Positions 38,134 to 44,547 of a DNA stretch of 64,000 nt are shown one piece after another. The notes beneath the pieces were generated by a model. That model ran no database searches and was not told the DNA's origin. It saw only the letters and a list, made by a program, of their open reading frames with translations. Every line of letters starts with the position of its first letter. Position 1 is the stretch's first letter. The stretch is taken from positions 365,896-429,895 of the forward strand of contig JACKAM010000002.1 of NCBI GenBank assembly GCA_020635075.1. The letters are read 5' to 3'. The DNA is from Pseudobdellovibrionaceae bacterium (GTDB lineage: Bacteria; Bdellovibrionota; Bdellovibrionia; Bdellovibrionales; UBA1609). Both the position numbers and the translations under genes were made by a program.

Positions 38134-38313
38134 TCGCTTTCCCCTCAATGGTGTCCAATTATAGAAGGCGAATCCCAAGAGGAACAGTCTCTCGACCTTG
38201 GTGCCACCAATTTAAACAGAGCATTAATGTAAGTCCTATTCCCCTTGAAGCCCGGCAGCATGGGTCTATGTAGGCGATTGCTTTGGCCTTTCTAAAAACA
38301 CCTGGACCTTAGA

Positions 38314-38375
38314 ACTTACATAATACCTACACTTGACTTACAAACTACTTACACATAACTTATACCTTACTTACA
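38314..38375 (+). promoter_or_regulatory. Six AC[TC]TA[CT]A heptamers at exact 11-bp spacing in the lexA leader; candidate operator array
   Basis: The heptamers start at 38314 (ACTTACA), 38325 (ACCTACA), 38336 (ACTTACA), 38347 (ACTTACA), 38358 (ACTTATA) and 38369 (ACTTACA). The lexA ATG is at 38386. A possible sigma-70 promoter, TTGACT (38333-38338)-N17-TAACTT, lies inside the array. Confidence 0.6.
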
Positions 38376-38385
38376 GAGGTGAAGC

Positions 38386-39201
38386 ATGAAAAACTCTAAG
38401 ACCGACTCTTCTCTCCGTCCCCTGACCAAGAAGGAAAAAAAGGTCCTGGAGTTTATTGAGAGCTATATGCAGAGCCAACAGGTGGCCCCTTCTTACCAGG
38501 AGATCCAGGATCATTTTGGTTTTAAGTCCATCAATTCGGTTCAATCTTATCTGCGCCAGCTCCAAGCCAAAGGTTACATCCATAATCCGGGTGGCAACCA
38601 GAAACGCGCCATCTCTCTTTTGCAGTCGGCCCAAACCGTTTCGTCTTCCCTAGGTTTAAGCACTCGTCGCTCCACTTCCCAGGAGCGACACCCTTCCAAC
38701 TCCTTCTACCCTTCCAAAGAGGAGACTCCGGCTCTCGTTGCCCGACCACAGCCGGAGTCTCTCTCTTTGCCCCTTTTGGGTCGAGTGGCAGCTGGTGCAC
38801 CAATTGAAGCTTTTGATCATGATGAGTTTGTCGAAGTGCCGGCCAACATGGTCCGCAACCCCAGTAAAACTTTTGCTTTGCGGGTTGAAGGACAATCAAT
38901 GATCGAAGATGGCATTTTAGATGGTGATCTTATTTTTGTTCAGCAACAGTCCTATGCCAACAATGGGGAAATCGTTGTGGCAATTGTAGACAATGAGGCC
39001 ACTGTTAAACATTTTTATTTGCATCGCGGGGACAATTTAAAAGTTATCCCCAAACATCCACAGAGTTCTTCACATCGCGGATCTGCATCTCGACAACAAG
39101 TGGAATTGCGTCCGGCAAATGCCACCATGGAATCCATGTGGTTTCAGCCGGAGCAAGTGGAAATTCGCGGCGTAGTGGTGGGTCTACTTAGGCATTATTG
39201 A
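38386..39201 (+). CDS. lexA: LexA repressor (long form, 271 aa)
   Basis: wHTH (LTKKEKKVLEFIESY..PSYQEIQDHFGFKSINSVQSYLRQLQAKGYI), cleavage site VAAGAP, catalytic GQSM and TVKHF. It has extra Ser/Pro-rich linker and C-terminal insertions. Confidence 0.9.
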   Translation: MKNSKTDSSLRPLTKKEKKVLEFIESYMQSQQVAPSYQEIQDHFGFKSINSVQSYLRQLQAKGYIHNPGGNQKRAISLLQSAQTVSSSLGLSTRRSTSQERHPSNSFYPSKEETPALVARPQPESLSLPLLGRVAAGAPIEAFDHDEFVEVPANMVRNPSKTFALRVEGQSMIEDGILDGDLIFVQQQSYANNGEIVVAIVDNEATVKHFYLHRGDNLKVIPKHPQSSSHRGSASRQQVELRPANATMESMWFQPEQVEIRGVVVGLLRHY

Positions 39202-39370
39202 TCTAAGCCGGTCCCACGCTATGACTCTTGGGCGCAACACTTTCTGTGTATGCAACCAAGAGGTCAGCACCTGACTTTTTTTACTTTAATTTGTTTTGGC
39301 TTTGCCAGAACTGTGAGGATTTATGTCTTTCGGCGAAAGGCCTAGGGGCATCTTATTCTCTGAATAATGG

Positions 39371-40021
39371 ATGACTATGAAGGACTCTTTACAAGCACTG
39401 TTTGTTCGCCCTCACGAACTGAAAACCCGGGAAGGTCTTCCCACCGGCTCGACCGAGTTGGATCAATTTTTGATTTGGCAGGGCATTCCTAAAGGTGCCG
39501 TTAGTTTACTTGTCAGCTCTCATGGCAGAGGTGCCACAAGCCTATGGGGCGATACGGCCATCCCCCTCACCCAACAAAAGAAGTGGGTAGCCTGGATGAA
39601 CAGCAGTGAGCACCACTTGTGCCCATGGAGTTGGTGGCAAAAGAAGATGGACTTCTCACGCCTGCTCGTTGTCTCCTCCCCGGATAACCGCAAAAAATTC
39701 CTCTGGGCTTTACATGAGCTTTTGTCTTTGAGTCTTTTCGATCTCATTGGTTGTGACTTGGGGGAACTCCAACTCCGGGATAGCGATGTTCTTAAACTTT
39801 CCCGCCATGCCCGCCGCGCCCAGGCGGCTGTGGTCCTGACCAGCGCCAATCGCTTTGTCCGGCGCAGCTCTTTTTACAGTTTGATTCTTAATTTCAACAG
39901 TCCCCGCCTCAAGATTGAGCGTGCCCAACATCGACTCACCCCCCACACCATAAAAAGGAGAAACACCTATGCGGACCTTGTGCCTCAACTTGCACAGAAC
40001 CGAAAAGCCCTCAGTAGCTGA
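39371..40021 (+). CDS. imuA: ImuA-like (SulA/RecA-fold) protein of the imuA-imuB-dnaE2 cassette
   Basis: 216 aa. Motifs LPTGSTELDQFL..GIPKGAVSLL. It sits between lexA and imuB. Confidence 0.65.
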   Translation: MTMKDSLQALFVRPHELKTREGLPTGSTELDQFLIWQGIPKGAVSLLVSSHGRGATSLWGDTAIPLTQQKKWVAWMNSSEHHLCPWSWWQKKMDFSRLLVVSSPDNRKKFLWALHELLSLSLFDLIGCDLGELQLRDSDVLKLSRHARRAQAAVVLTSANRFVRRSSFYSLILNFNSPRLKIERAQHRLTPHTIKRRNTYADLVPQLAQNRKALSS

Positions 40022-41279
40022 AAACTTTTTGACCTTCAGCCCACGGGTGCAGTTCCGTGAGCCAGGCCTGGTCTTTGCTGATATCACGGGCACCAGTCAT
40101 TTGTTTGGCTCAGAGAAAAAGTTATTGAGTGAGGCTCTGCAAATTGCCCGTGACTTTTACCCCCAAGCCACCGGAGCTATTGCTGACACTCCCGCTCCCG
40201 CGCAGGTTTTCACCTTTCTCCAGGACACCACCATCGTTCCCCCCACCCAGGAATCTGATGACTTAAAGACTCTACCCCTGGACTCTCTTTTACACCTTGA
40301 AGGCCTGATCACCTGGCACAGCACTCGCGAAGTGGAAGACATCATCTCTTTCTTTCAAGTGTTGGGCATGAAAACCATCGGCGATTTGGATCGTTTCCAA
40401 ATGGAATCCCTGCGCGAGCGCTGGGGGGACACAGGAGCCACTCTGTGGAAGCGCCTCCATGGTATGGAAAGGCAAGTGATCTCGCCCCTGCTACCCACGG
40501 AATCTTTGGTAGACTACATCCACTTGGATTTTCCAGTTTCTCTGCTTCCTTTTTTACTTCACTGTCTGGAAAAATCCCTACGCCACCTGTGTCGCCGCCT
40601 GCAGGGGCGGGCCGAGTTTGTCCGCAAGGTTCGCATTCATCTGTATTGTGAGTACTCGTCTAAATGTCATGTCCTGGAACTCACACCGGCCAGCCCGGGG
40701 CGAAACCTGGAACTTCTTATGAAACTCATGGAAAACAAATTGGCTGAAGTGGATTTGGAAAATCCCATTCGTGAAATGGAAATTGAAATTGTCCCCTGTC
40801 CGGAGAAAATCCAACAGCTCGACTTTTGGGAGCCACGCACCCGGGATCAGGACAAACTGGATCAACTGGTTAGTCTTTTTAACCAGGCCTCTTTGACCAC
40901 AGGTTTTTTTAAACCCCACAATGAGATTTTGCCGGAAAAGTCATGGGACCTGACTCCTGAGTTTGAAGATTTTGACGCCATTGAAGACGAAGTGGAGGTC
41001 GAGGGGCAGTCTTTTCGTTTAAGACCTGCTTACAGTCACCAACTGGCTCATTCACCCCGCCCCACTCGTTTATTGAAAAAACCCAAGCGCCTTGCCCAGC
41101 AGGAGCTGCGGCAGTTGCACTTTTTAAGCTCTTACCCCGTGGAGCGCCTTGAGGACGGTTGGTGGGACGACTCCCGAGGACGCGATTATTACTTCGCCCT
41201 GTCTTCACAGGGCCAATGCCTGTGGCTGTTTATGGACCGAATCGAAAACGAGTACTATCTCCATGGCTACTTTGATTAG
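39969..41279 (+). CDS. imuB: ImuB, Y-family-polymerase-like accessory protein
   Basis: 436 aa. The N-terminus (LVFADITGTSHLFG) is Y-family-like. It lies directly upstream of, and overlaps, dnaE2. Confidence 0.7.
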   Translation: MRTLCLNLHRTEKPSVAENFLTFSPRVQFREPGLVFADITGTSHLFGSEKKLLSEALQIARDFYPQATGAIADTPAPAQVFTFLQDTTIVPPTQESDDLKTLPLDSLLHLEGLITWHSTREVEDIISFFQVLGMKTIGDLDRFQMESLRERWGDTGATLWKRLHGMERQVISPLLPTESLVDYIHLDFPVSLLPFLLHCLEKSLRHLCRRLQGRAEFVRKVRIHLYCEYSSKCHVLELTPASPGRNLELLMKLMENKLAEVDLENPIREMEIEIVPCPEKIQQLDFWEPRTRDQDKLDQLVSLFNQASLTTGFFKPHNEILPEKSWDLTPEFEDFDAIEDEVEVEGQSFRLRPAYSHQLAHSPRPTRLLKKPKRLAQQELRQLHFLSSYPVERLEDGWWDDSRGRDYYFALSSQGQCLWLFMDRIENEYYLHGYFD

Positions 41280-44200
41280 AAAAAACTCCCAGCTTGTTTC
41301 AGCTGGGACTTCAATTGAGTACGTGGAGCTTTTAGGTCGCAGCAATTTCTCCTTTCTCCAGGGAGCCTCCCATCCAGAGGAAATGGTTTTACAGGCAAAA
41401 GCTCTCGGTTATCGTGGATTGGCCATCTGTGACATCAATGGCCTGTATGGTGTGGTTAAAGGTTTTGAGGCCGCAGAGAAACCCTCCCACTTTAGCGTTC
41501 AGGAAATTCACACGCAGGCCGCCCGCAATAAGAACTTTCGCTATCATTTGGGGGCAGAACTCACCTTAGCCGACAAGAGTTCACTGGTTCTTCTCCCCAT
41601 GAACAAAGACGGTTATTCGCGCCTGTGCCAACTGATCACTCTGGCCCGGCGTAAAGCGCCAAAGGGATATTCGGACCTCACTCTTCAGGAGATTCTCCTT
41701 CACAGCGACGACCTGATTGCCTGTCCACTTCCACCCTGGAACCTAAAGACACTTAAAAGTCTCAGGGAGATTTTTTACCGCCGGCTTTATCTTCCGGTGT
41801 GGAAAGACTTCTCCTGGTCGTCGGTGCAGCACTTTCAACAAGGACTACAGATCGAACAACAACTGGGGATCCCACTGTTTGCCACGCAACGTCCTTTTAT
41901 GCACCACCCGGATCGCAAGCCTCTCCACGATGTGTTGACCTGTATCTTCCATAAGACCAACCTGACGGAAGCCAAATCCCTACTGCTTTCCAACCGTGAG
42001 CGCCACCTAAAGCCCCTTCATGATTTGGCTTACCTGTGGCGGGAGCGCCCTGATCTTTTGACCCGTACCGTGGAAATTGCCAATCAACTGGAGTTTTCTT
42101 TGACCGAGCTGCGCTACCAGTACCCTCAGGCTAATTTGCCTCCAGGAAAGTTGCCCGCACAGTATTTGCGTGAGCGCGTGGAGGCCGGCGTTCTTTGGCG
42201 GTATCCTGAAGGTGAACCCAAGCAGGTTCGCCAACTGATCGAGCATGAGCTGGACGTCATCACTGAGCTTCAATATGAAGATTACTTTCTCACTATCTGG
42301 GACATTTGCGAGTTCGCCCGACGGGAAAAGATTCTCTTTCAGGGCCGGGGGTCTGCGGCCAACTCGGTGGTGTGTTATGTCCTGGGACTCACTGCGGTTG
42401 ATCCCACCCAAATTCAATTGTTGTTTGAGCGTTTTATTTCCAAAGAACGGGGAGAACCTCCGGATATTGACATTGATTTTGAAAGCGGCCGCCGTGAGGA
42501 GGTGATTCAATACATCTACAAAAAATACGGGGCCCAGTTCGCCGCCATGGTGGCCACCGTGATCTGCTACCGCACACGCATGGCCCTTCGTGAATCCGCC
42601 AAAGTTTTGGAGATTCCCACGGCCACCATTGACCACATGATTAAATTTATGGGCCGCGAGGGCCTTAAACGCCTGATGGAAAACCCGGATAAAGCGGTTG
42701 AGTTAAAGATCCCGCCTGAGAAGTTCCAACTGCTGATGGAGGTCAGTGCTTCTCTGCAAGGCTTTCCCCGCCACCTGGGTATTCACACCGGGGGATTTTT
42801 AATTTCCCAAAGACCCATCACTGAGTGTGTCCCGGTGGAAAAGGCCACCATGGAAAATCGCTATGTGGTGCAGTGGAACAAGGATGACCTGACCACCTTA
42901 AACATGATGAAGATTGATGTCTTGGGCTTGGGAATGCTCACCGCCTTGCAAAAGAGTTTTGCCATGTTGAGTGCGGACAAGGGCCTCTCTCTTGACCTTT
43001 CCAGCCTTCCCCCTCGTGACCAGGCCACCTATGACATGATTCAAAAGGCCGACACGGTGGGCGTTTTTCAAATTGAATCGCGGGCGCAAATGTCTCTTCT
43101 CCCCCGCTTTAAACCCAACTGTTTTTATGACCTGGTGATTGAGGTGGCCATTATCCGCCCTGGCCCTATTCAGGGCGGAATGGTCCATCCCTTTATTCGC
43201 AGAAGACATGGCAAGGAAAAGGTCACCTATCCCCATCCCGATCTAGAACCTATTCTCGGTAAAACCTTAGGAGTTCCCATTTTTCAAGAGCAGATCATGC
43301 AGATTGCCTCAACGGTTTGTGGCTTTACTCCAGGTGAGGCTGATGAACTCAGGCGCCTGATGTCCTCAAGTTGGAAGCACCCGGATGTCATGCAAGGTCT
43401 TAGACAGCGAATTCTCAACGGCATGCTCAATCATGGGATTAGCCTTCAGGATGGCGAACAGATTTACCGCACCATTGAGGGTTTTGCCTCCTACGGATTT
43501 CCCGAAAGTCATGCCGCCAGCTTTGCTTTGATTACCTATGCCAGTTGTTATCTCAAACGCCACCATCCGGAGGTTTTCACCTGTGCTCTTTTAAATAGCC
43601 AGCCCATGGGCTTTTACTCCCCTCGCACATTGATTGGCGATGCGCAAAGACACAAGGTGCGCTTTTTGCCCATTCACATTCAACGCTCTGGCTATGATTA
43701 CTCTTTGGAGAAACTGGTCACACTCGAAGATCGCAGCCGATGGGCCGTGCGCCTGGGGTTTCGCTCGATTTATGGCATTCAGGAAAGGCACATCCAAAGC
43801 CTTTTAGAAGAGCGACAATCCAGCGGTGAATTTAAAAATCTGGAAGATCTTGTCCGCCGCACTCGTTTGCCAAAACATATTTTGATTTCCCTGGCCGCAG
43901 CCGGGGCTTTTGAGTGTTGGGGACTCAATCCCCGAGCAGCCCTGTGGGCCTTGCAATCCTTGCAACTGGACCAACAGAGTCTTTTGTTTGGTCAGCCCCG
44001 TGAAAGCTTTGGCCAGCCCGATCAACTGATGGCTTTGCCAGGCGTGGAATACATCCCCGATGAGAACCAATGGGACAAACTCAGGCGGGAGTATCAGTCC
44101 AAAGGCTTTGCTTTAGATCATCACCCCTTAAGTTTGTTACGCCCCTCCATTGATCAGGCCAATGTAGAATTACGCAAGAACAATTACATTTGCTACATTC

Positions 44201-44547
44201 AGGCGAAAGACTTAGGACAAAAACGCAATGGCTCCAAGGTGCGCGTGGCAGGCCTCTTGAGCATCCAACAGCGCCCCCCTACCGCCAAGGGTTTTGCCTT
44301 CCTCACCCTCGAAGATGAAACTGGTTTTTTTAATATTGTCATGACCCCACCCATTTATCAGGCCTACCGCCTGACCCTTATCCAGTCGCCTTTAATTGAA
44401 GTTCAGGGTGTTCTCGAAAAGTATGATGGGGTTCTCAATATCAAAGCCATACGACTTTGTCCCTTGCCACTCAGAGGCTGGCTCCAACCAGAACCACCAA
44501 AGTCGCTGACTTCTTCAAAGCGAGGTCTTTCGCAAAGATCTTATTGA
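41263..44547 (+). CDS. dnaE2: Error-prone DNA polymerase III alpha-subunit paralog
   Basis: PHP domain start YVELLGRSNFSFLQGASHPEEM, polymerase core (GRGSAANSVVCY, PDIDIDF, KIDVLGLGML, GVFQIESR) and a C-terminal OB region. I prefer the ATG at 41263 over the track start at 41149, which overlaps imuB. Confidence 0.9.
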   Translation: MATLIRKNSQLVSAGTSIEYVELLGRSNFSFLQGASHPEEMVLQAKALGYRGLAICDINGLYGVVKGFEAAEKPSHFSVQEIHTQAARNKNFRYHLGAELTLADKSSLVLLPMNKDGYSRLCQLITLARRKAPKGYSDLTLQEILLHSDDLIACPLPPWNLKTLKSLREIFYRRLYLPVWKDFSWSSVQHFQQGLQIEQQLGIPLFATQRPFMHHPDRKPLHDVLTCIFHKTNLTEAKSLLLSNRERHLKPLHDLAYLWRERPDLLTRTVEIANQLEFSLTELRYQYPQANLPPGKLPAQYLRERVEAGVLWRYPEGEPKQVRQLIEHELDVITELQYEDYFLTIWDICEFARREKILFQGRGSAANSVVCYVLGLTAVDPTQIQLLFERFISKERGEPPDIDIDFESGRREEVIQYIYKKYGAQFAAMVATVICYRTRMALRESAKVLEIPTATIDHMIKFMGREGLKRLMENPDKAVELKIPPEKFQLLMEVSASLQGFPRHLGIHTGGFLISQRPITECVPVEKATMENRYVVQWNKDDLTTLNMMKIDVLGLGMLTALQKSFAMLSADKGLSLDLSSLPPRDQATYDMIQKADTVGVFQIESRAQMSLLPRFKPNCFYDLVIEVAIIRPGPIQGGMVHPFIRRRHGKEKVTYPHPDLEPILGKTLGVPIFQEQIMQIASTVCGFTPGEADELRRLMSSSWKHPDVMQGLRQRILNGMLNHGISLQDGEQIYRTIEGFASYGFPESHAASFALITYASCYLKRHHPEVFTCALLNSQPMGFYSPRTLIGDAQRHKVRFLPIHIQRSGYDYSLEKLVTLEDRSRWAVRLGFRSIYGIQERHIQSLLEERQSSGEFKNLEDLVRRTRLPKHILISLAAAGAFECWGLNPRAALWALQSLQLDQQSLLFGQPRESFGQPDQLMALPGVEYIPDENQWDKLRREYQSKGFALDHHPLSLLRPSIDQANVELRKNNYICYIQAKDLGQKRNGSKVRVAGLLSIQQRPPTAKGFAFLTLEDETGFFNIVMTPPIYQAYRLTLIQSPLIEVQGVLEKYDGVLNIKAIRLCPLPLRGWLQPEPPKSLTSSKRGLSQRSY

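Follow-up and report, generated by a model that had tools for sequence, protein, structure and literature searches.

A six-heptamer direct-repeat array in the lexA leader of a Pseudobdellovibrionaceae bacterium as a probable head-to-tail LexA operator

LexA operators in described systems

LexA is unusual among bacterial regulators in that its DNA motif has changed many times. SOS operators with more than one box are familiar from E. coli, with two boxes at lexA, three at recN, and paired boxes at colicin promoters. Sites of the PhoB/OmpR/ArcA type combine seven conserved and four variable base pairs into an 11-bp period, occur in variable copy number, and lie over the -35 element. For B. bacteriovorus, two LexA targets, lexA and imuA-imuB-dnaE2, were reportedly defined by experiment in Campoy et al. 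2005. The same work is reported to describe a minimal regulon from which recA is excluded.

Two elements of the present study are already established in the literature, namely LexA boxes built from direct repeats with an 11-bp period in Alphaproteobacteria and the TTAC half-site in B. bacteriovorus. In Caulobacter, Rhodobacter, and Sinorhizobium, LexA binds the direct-repeat SOS box GTTC-N7-GTTC (PMC8565304, PMC9578287), which documents the precedent invoked in the original prediction for this locus. PMC8565304, citing Campoy et al. 2005 (J Bacteriol 187:5367), gives the B. bacteriovorus LexA box as TTAC-N3-GTAA, and ArcA direct repeats are described in PMC4173790. A literature search for a direct-repeat LexA box in Bdellovibrionales returned nothing, which is not proof of absence.

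The heptamer array of the lexA leader

The window is the whole 64,000-nt stretch of DNA that was analysed, part of the 4.51-Mb genome of a Pseudobdellovibrionaceae bacterium (G000), whose congener and sister species is G035. It had been proposed from the letters alone that six heptamers in perfect 11-bp register occupy the lexA leader and may form a direct-repeat SOS operator. Direct reading confirms six copies of AC[TC]TA[CT]A in exact 11-bp register, Tandem Repeats Finder returns the same interval as a period-11 array, and pair statistics agree (Table 1). The units are ACTTACAtaat, ACCTACActtg, ACTTACAaact, ACTTACAcata, ACTTATAcctt, and ACTTACAgagg. After these come tgaagc and, at 38386, the ATG of lexA, leaving 10 nt between the end of the array and the ATG. 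The consensus is matched at 40 of the 42 heptamer positions and the six 4-nt spacers are all different. Heptamers that stay constant among unrelated spacers suggest selection on the heptamers rather than recent tandem duplication.

Taken singly, the heptamer shows no enrichment in the window (14 matches vs. 12.1 expected), with six of the 14 matches falling inside these 62 bp. The heptamer-N4-heptamer pair occurs five times in the window where 0.04 would be expected, a count reached in 0/100 shuffles, and under the strict pattern the array is its only occurrence in the whole G000 genome. A 22-bp position weight matrix (PWM) was trained without the sites of G000 and G035 (training range 19.8–38.5 bits). 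Its five best G000 matches (32.4 to 18.0 bits) all lie in the array and the next reaches 14.5 bits, although the training sites were chosen by pattern and the information content is therefore inflated.

TTAC is present in four of the six heptamers, with CTAC and TTAT in the remaining two, and the array can be written as TTAC-N7-TTAC, a direct 4-nt core with an 11-bp period. The likeness of the CTTAC core to a TTAC half-site, remarked on beforehand, gains support, as the published B. bacteriovorus box has this heptamer for its half-site. The reported lack of a palindromic LexA box also holds: 11 known box types, palindromic or direct, have no match in 38134–38400, and the same interval contains neither TTAC-N(1-9)-GTAA nor TTAC-N3-GTAA with one mismatch. 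GTTC-N7-GTTC and GAAC-N7-GAAC are absent from the leader.

Table 1. Features of the lexA leader and the downstream genes, in positions of the window. Pair scores are from the PWM.
Feature	Position	Strand	Evidence
Isolated inverted heptamer, TGTAAGT on + strand	38228..38234	-	Present; G035 has TGAAAAC there
Heptamer array, ACTTACA consensus, proposed LexA operator	38314..38375	+	Reading, Tandem Repeats Finder, pair statistics
Heptamer 1, ACTTACA, 5' of -35	38314..38320	+	Pair 1-2 = 20.6 bits
Heptamer 2, ACCTACA	38325..38331	+	Pair 2-3 = 18.5 bits
Putative -35, TTGACT	38333..38338	+	Reading; TTGACTT in 51/71 lexA upstream regions of the order
Heptamer 3, ACTTACA, over -35 as TTGACTTACA; conserved core position in relatives	38336..38342	+	Pair 3-4 = 30.6 bits
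Heptamer 4, ACTTACA, in promoter spacer; second conserved core position	38347..38353	+	Pair 4-5 = 32.4 bits
Putative -10, TAACTT, weak, TAnnnT form	38356..38361	+	Reading; 3/6 match to TATAAT
Heptamer 5, ACTTATA, over -10	38358..38364	+	Direct reading
Heptamer 6, ACTTACA, around expected transcription start	38369..38375	+	Pair 5-6 = 18.0 bits
Ribosome-binding site, GAGGTGA	38376..38382	+	Reading; conserved in G035
lexA, 271 aa	38386..39201	+	Pfam LexA_DNA_bind and Peptidase_S24; alignment to solved LexA structures
Weak terminator-like hairpin, lexA-imuA gap	39258..39280	+	GTCAG-cac-CTGAC then T run
imuA-like gene, weakly RecA-like	39371..40021	+	Weak Pfam RecA match
imuB-like gene	39969..41279	+	Synteny and homology to HD100-type cassette; no Pfam match
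dnaE2-type error-prone polymerase gene	41263..44547	+	ORF list; N-terminal similarity to HD100-type cassette polymerase

Promoter and upstream leader

The promoter proposed beforehand, TTGACT-N17-TAACTT, stands in part. Both hexamers are present at a distance of 17 nt, but the -10 is weak and a sigma-70 consensus scan does not call a promoter at the array, TAACTT matching the E. coli consensus TATAAT at only three of six positions. With no call from the scan, the assignment rests on the TTGACT-N17/18-TAnnnT arrangement conserved in the relatives inspected, in which TAnnnT was found by eye 17–18 nt past TTGACT (L002, L003, L012, L105). With TTGACT, TAACTT, and the expected start all inside it, the array lies over the lexA promoter, a placement shared by 61/71 relatives.

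The array might instead be a structural or promoter element without a dedicated repressor, working through phased bending, as an UP-like element, or as reiterated -35/-10-like words. The 11-bp phasing does put the repeats on one helix face, and the word is found within the -35, as TTGACTTA, and within the -10, as TAACTTA. We nevertheless hold this to be extremely improbable, since A-tracts are absent, relatives carry dimers directly before start codons or away from any TTG (e.g. dinB-like L129; umuD L071 and L076), which speaks against a promoter element as such, and the dimer is confined to genes of the lexA/SOS type and to lexA-bearing genomes.

The inverted TGTAAGT that the original prediction noted towards the divergent gene is present, but it is not conserved in G035. 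It was rejected as part of the operator and is probably there by chance.

A further word was seen in this part of the leader. CTGGACC lies at 38302–38308, and in many lexA promoters, as in some other box-bearing promoters, a GTCCAG/CTGGAC-like word precedes the first heptamer by 12–60 nt (L003, L019, L023, L024, L029, L030, L032, L065, L067, L106–L108, L112–L114). The exact GTCCAG/CTGGAC hexamer is present in 16/88 regions compared to ~3% of control windows. The word may belong to an extended promoter or mark a second element of regulation.

LexA and the downstream cassette

The 271-aa product of lexA matches PF01726 (E = 8e-16) and PF00717 (E = 1.9e-29). It consists of a winged-HTH domain that aligns with solved LexA structures, a hinge of ~55 aa, a VAAG/AP cleavage site, and a C-terminal domain with an insert of ~20 aa. 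The cleavage site and the catalytic Ser and Lys are intact: in the alignment VAAG/AP falls on Ala84-Gly85 of E. coli LexA, GQSM on Ser119, and TVKH on Lys156. As G000 has no second lexA, the reading of this protein as a cassette-only 'LexA2' was rejected.

This LexA had been described as atypically long, which did not survive comparison. Hinge lengths range from 44 to 65 aa across the clade, Bdellovibrio-like LexAs included, and do not correlate with heptamer copy number (Spearman 0.17, p = 0.39). Judged by these alignments, the long hinge is a trait of the clade and is not special to the G000 gene.

Downstream of lexA lie imuA-like, imuB-like, and dnaE2-type genes, the last assigned an inferred start at ATG 41263 within a longest ORF that begins at 41149. 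Linkage of lexA to imuA is seen in 29/33 loci, and to imuA or imuB in 31/33. The 169-nt gap after lexA contains no promoter-like or operator-like site, and expression of the cassette therefore probably requires transcripts from the lexA promoter to read through, which may give a reduced level. The hairpin in this gap may cause partial termination and so lower expression of the cassette relative to lexA; the hairpin found at this position in G035 is a different one.

Conservation across the Bdellovibrionales

The collection of lexA loci began with 33 genomes, was extended to diverged LexA lineages within that family, and finally took in further families of the order. Public records with the closest LexAs belong to Pseudobdellovibrionaceae, Bdellovibrio sp., and Bdellovibrionales. 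In an unbiased count of 7-mers that left out the studied window, ACTTACA is the top word, present in 61/71 lexA upstream regions of the order compared to 4/72 control regions. Spacings between direct copies in the 71 regions peak at 11 bp (73 cases), 22 bp (20), 33 bp (11), and 44 bp (7). Inverted copies, where present, lie 3' of the direct ones at variable distance. Nearly all gathered lexA promoters begin TTGACTTACA-N4-ACTTACA(C), such that the first heptamer of the relatives overlaps the -35-like TTGACT and the second sits in the promoter spacer.

Copy number varies around this core. Among the 33 promoters, 17 have three in-phase copies, 12 have two, one has a single copy, one has five, and two have six, these last being G000 and its congener G035. 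Arrays of four to five copies also exist in other families. Between G000 and G035 the array is identical at 60/62 positions, compared to 48% identity in the upstream flank and 72% in the lexA coding DNA, and all six copies and all spacers but one are conserved. It appears from these alignments that the genus has expanded the usual operator of two or three heptamers to six.

An alternative is that LexA binding is confined to the conserved core on the -35 and spacer (heptamers 3-4, perhaps 5), the outer copies being by-products of replication slippage of an 11-bp unit with little or no effect. Two or three copies suffice in most relatives, and pairs 3-4 and 4-5 score 30–32 bits whereas the outer pairs score 18–21, which is no better than the lowest scores in the training range. 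Slippage does not sit well with the retention of all six copies and all spacers but one between species whose flank is only 48% identical, nor with the differing spacers within the array, which mark the copies as other than recent duplicates. Arrays of four to five copies also arose in other families, and binding restricted to the core is considered unlikely.

Association of the motif with LexA

The motif follows LexA across the family. A dimer is present in 61/64 lexA-positive genomes and 18/44 lexA-negative genomes (Fisher p = 2.6e-10), although the genomes without lexA are small and cluster in the phylogeny, so that the p-value overstates their independence. lexA-positive genomes have a mean of 2.6 dimers compared to 1.2 for a reversed-pattern control, and lexA-negative genomes 0.6 compared to 1.1. 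Genera g14, g18, g29, and g30 of family f1, with genomes of 1.2–2.5 Mb, have neither lexA nor the dimer, and the LexA system may have been lost from these reduced genomes.

The word also varies with the protein. Every LexA of the ACTTACA type has the recognition helix S-[IF]-NSVQ-[SR]-Y together with the wing GGNQKRA. In two diverged LexAs the helix is TAKSTVQHY, and AAGTACG-N4-AAGTACG pairs, again 11 bp apart, precede their genes, while a third type with an S-SVQQF helix is found with ACGTATA-like words. The diverged loci within the family are L092 (G098), L093 (G100), L094 (G102), and L095 (G003), and some genomes have two LexA-type genes (G102, G003, G010). As far as these sequences reveal, the word changes with the LexA protein while the head-to-tail 11-bp layout stays.

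This association bears on whether another regulator, of the OmpR/PhoB winged-HTH type or a partner protein of LexA, reads the repeats in place of LexA. Seven conserved and four variable base pairs, an 11-bp period, and overlap with the -35 are the classic PhoB/ArcA layout. However, the motif tracks lexA phyletically and lies at lexA itself in 61/71 genomes, its half-site is common to the experimentally defined LexA box, and the word shifts where the LexA recognition helix shifts. In relatives, the motif stands before SOS genes. Furthermore, no regulator gene is linked to the array, the divergent 164-aa ORF having no Pfam match, and a binder other than LexA is regarded as very unlikely.

The LexA regulon in G000 and its relatives

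The direct-repeat dimer had been suggested to recur upstream of other damage genes, which proved true of relatives but not of G000. Genome-wide searches of G000 with the strict pattern and the 22-bp PWM found no other targets, and direct inspection of the region upstream of pgpA-cinA-recA showed the motif to be absent. G000 has no homologue of umuDC, of the radical-SAM gene, or of the two conserved box-bearing families found in relatives. The lexA-imuA-imuB-dnaE2 operon thus appears to be the only LexA target predicted in G000, as in G035. Absence of the motif from other damage-inducible promoters had been named beforehand as evidence against the operator, and taken literally this is what G000 displays, but a minimal regulon of this kind is also reported for B. 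bacteriovorus. As the motif is limited to the lexA operon in G000, support from the regulon comes from outside this genome.

A pattern search for dimers covered 109 genomes of the family, and 20 perfect dimers away from lexA were examined among the matches listed. At least three of these precede pgpA-cinA-recA, in three genera (L070 in G016, L073 in G036, L075 in G046), where they sit on a TTGACTTACA promoter. recA is accordingly predicted to be under LexA control in those three genera, unlike in B. bacteriovorus and G000. At least two dimers precede umuD-umuC, in two genera, at least one precedes a radical-SAM gene, at least one a weakly ImuB-like gene (pairwise E = 2e-5), and at least four precede two families of conserved unknown proteins. 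For about nine of the 20, the downstream gene could not be interpreted. In another family, Bdellovibrionaceae, a bare dimer lies directly 5' of a dinB-like gene.

The two box-preceded protein families measure 115–118 aa and ~200 aa and have no reliable Pfam match. Each is found in two genomes (L067 in G006 and L077 in G049; L068 in G006 and L081 in G061), and both are candidate new SOS genes. Separately, nearly all 74 pattern matches of G008 are the identical word ACTGACATGAAACTTACA (e.g. C1:4114–4131), which evidently belongs to a dispersed repeat and has nothing to do with the LexA site.

Proposed mechanism

On this evidence the array is most probably the LexA operator of the lexA-imuA-imuB-dnaE2 operon, built of head-to-tail half-sites with one dimer per pair of heptamers. 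The direct-repeat SOS operator first proposed for this leader gains support from order-wide conservation, phasing, the SOS genes of relatives, co-occurrence with lexA, and co-variation with the recognition helix. What was observed across ~70 genomes is the repeat itself, how unique, conserved, and regularly phased it is, and how it goes together with lexA and SOS genes. We infer that LexA is the binder, that each repeat pair takes up one dimer, and that none of the six copies stays empty.

Each ACTTACA heptamer would serve as the half-site for one LexA winged-HTH domain, and a LexA dimer would cover two neighbouring heptamers, reading direct repeats TTAC-N7-TTAC 11 bp apart. The usual operator would then comprise two or three heptamers, on the -35 and in the promoter spacer, while the six-heptamer array would run from about -55 to +8 and take in both promoter hexamers as well as the transcription start. 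This would leave room for up to three LexA dimers side by side (1-2, 3-4, 5-6), blocking RNA polymerase, or for two in the alternative register (2-3, 4-5). The 11-bp period would place all LexA domains roughly on one face of the helix, and the ~55-aa hinge between the winged-HTH and the dimerisation domain would permit a head-to-tail arrangement of the DNA-binding domains. Cooperative or open-ended binding of LexA along the array is plausible.

Following DNA damage, RecA-stimulated self-cleavage of LexA would free the promoter, giving more LexA and more of the error-prone polymerase cassette. As the operon appears to be its only target, LexA in G000 would act as a dedicated switch for the mutagenesis cassette. 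The prediction for this organism is that LexA does one job, gating the error-prone polymerase cassette behind a heavily guarded promoter. More widely, the motif would make the SOS regulon predictable in ~100 uncultured Bdellovibrionales genomes.

Comparison with known systems

Sites of the PhoB/OmpR/ArcA type offer an analogy only, that of a winged-HTH protein reading direct repeats with an 11-bp period, variable copy number, and overlap with the -35. Those proteins are phosphorylation-controlled response regulators, mostly activators, whereas the G000 protein is a self-cleaving S24-peptidase repressor with no homology to them beyond the general winged-HTH fold. The SOS operators of E. coli resemble the array in having several adjacent LexA sites in one promoter, with tighter and possibly cooperative repression, and in the autoregulation of lexA through more than one site. 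They differ in that the E. coli boxes are separable 16–20-bp palindromes, while the G000 array consists of 11-bp head-to-tail repeats in which every neighbouring pair is a potential site, giving five overlapping registers.

The alphaproteobacterial box is closer in layout, with a direct tetranucleotide core, N7 between the copies, and an 11-bp period, and it provides the precedent for a LexA dimer reading head-to-tail half-sites. Its core is GTTC rather than TTAC and it belongs to an unrelated LexA lineage. To our knowledge it has been described as two units and not as arrays of three to six.

B. bacteriovorus is represented here by genome G166, which we take to be strain HD100. Its lexA promoter reads TTG-ACTTACA-cata-ATTTACA-c-TGTAAGT-tcgta-TGTAAGT-t-ATG, in which TTAC-N3-GTAA is formed by heptamer 2 abutting an inverted heptamer. 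G166 has exactly two perfect direct dimers, one at lexA and one at 363,928 that precedes imuA-imuB-dnaE2 and again runs into TTACATAGTAA, and the promoters of both lexA and the cassette carry the direct pair ACTTACA-N4-ATTTACA. At the cassette, as at lexA, the published box arises where the second heptamer meets an inverted one, and the two sites coincide with the LexA targets reportedly defined in Campoy et al. 2005. Its recA (479.5 kb) has no dimer within 100 kb, which agrees with the title of that paper.

A one-mismatch dimer, ATTTACAtataATTTACA, also recurs in Bdellovibrio genomes, namely G166 (L126, 1641400–1644500), G160, G190, G128, and G172. In G166 it lies ~190 nt 5' of a gene for an HTH protein followed by a 195-aa gene, and might represent one more LexA target, beyond those reported for HD100.

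The likeness between the two organisms extends from the half-site, TTAC lying within ACTTACA, to the protein, as B. bacteriovorus LexA is 63% identical to that of G000. It also includes the targets, lexA and the imuA-imuB-dnaE2 cassette, and, reportedly, a similarly minimal regulon. The arrangement differs. In the published B. bacteriovorus palindrome the centres of the half-sites are separated by 7 bp, whereas G000 has six direct copies 11 bp apart, a leader without an inverted half-site, and hence no dyad arrangement of the B. bacteriovorus kind. Unlike in B. bacteriovorus, lexA and the cassette of G000 form one operon under one operator. The palindrome is the only experimentally defined box of the clade, and if its LexA strictly needs an inverted half-site, the protein would not bind here.

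What appears to be new is that the conserved unit of the Bdellovibrionales is ACTTACA-N4-ACTTACA, of which the published palindrome would be a local variant, that some relatives seem to place recA and umuDC under the direct repeat, and that the genus of G000 has apparently grown the operator to six units. The same half-site is seen inverted and direct in this clade, sometimes in one promoter, in two to six copies, which bears on how a dimeric repressor shifts between palindromic and direct-repeat sites, and the clade has an experimentally tractable member in B. bacteriovorus HD100. The textbook Bdellovibrio box may, it is suggested, describe only part of the operator.

A bolder and rather doubtful extension is that the Bdellovibrionales LexA site is basically head-to-tail, the palindrome being a local arrangement, with LexA lining up open-endedly on two to six heptamers and the clade a living intermediate that reads both inverted and direct half-sites. 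Domains of one dimer would touch head to tail in the same way as domains of neighbouring dimers, so that a LexA with a ~50-aa hinge could align open-endedly, much as proteins of the PhoB/OmpR type do. If true, this clade would show how direct-repeat SOS boxes, such as those of Alphaproteobacteria, can evolve from palindromes.
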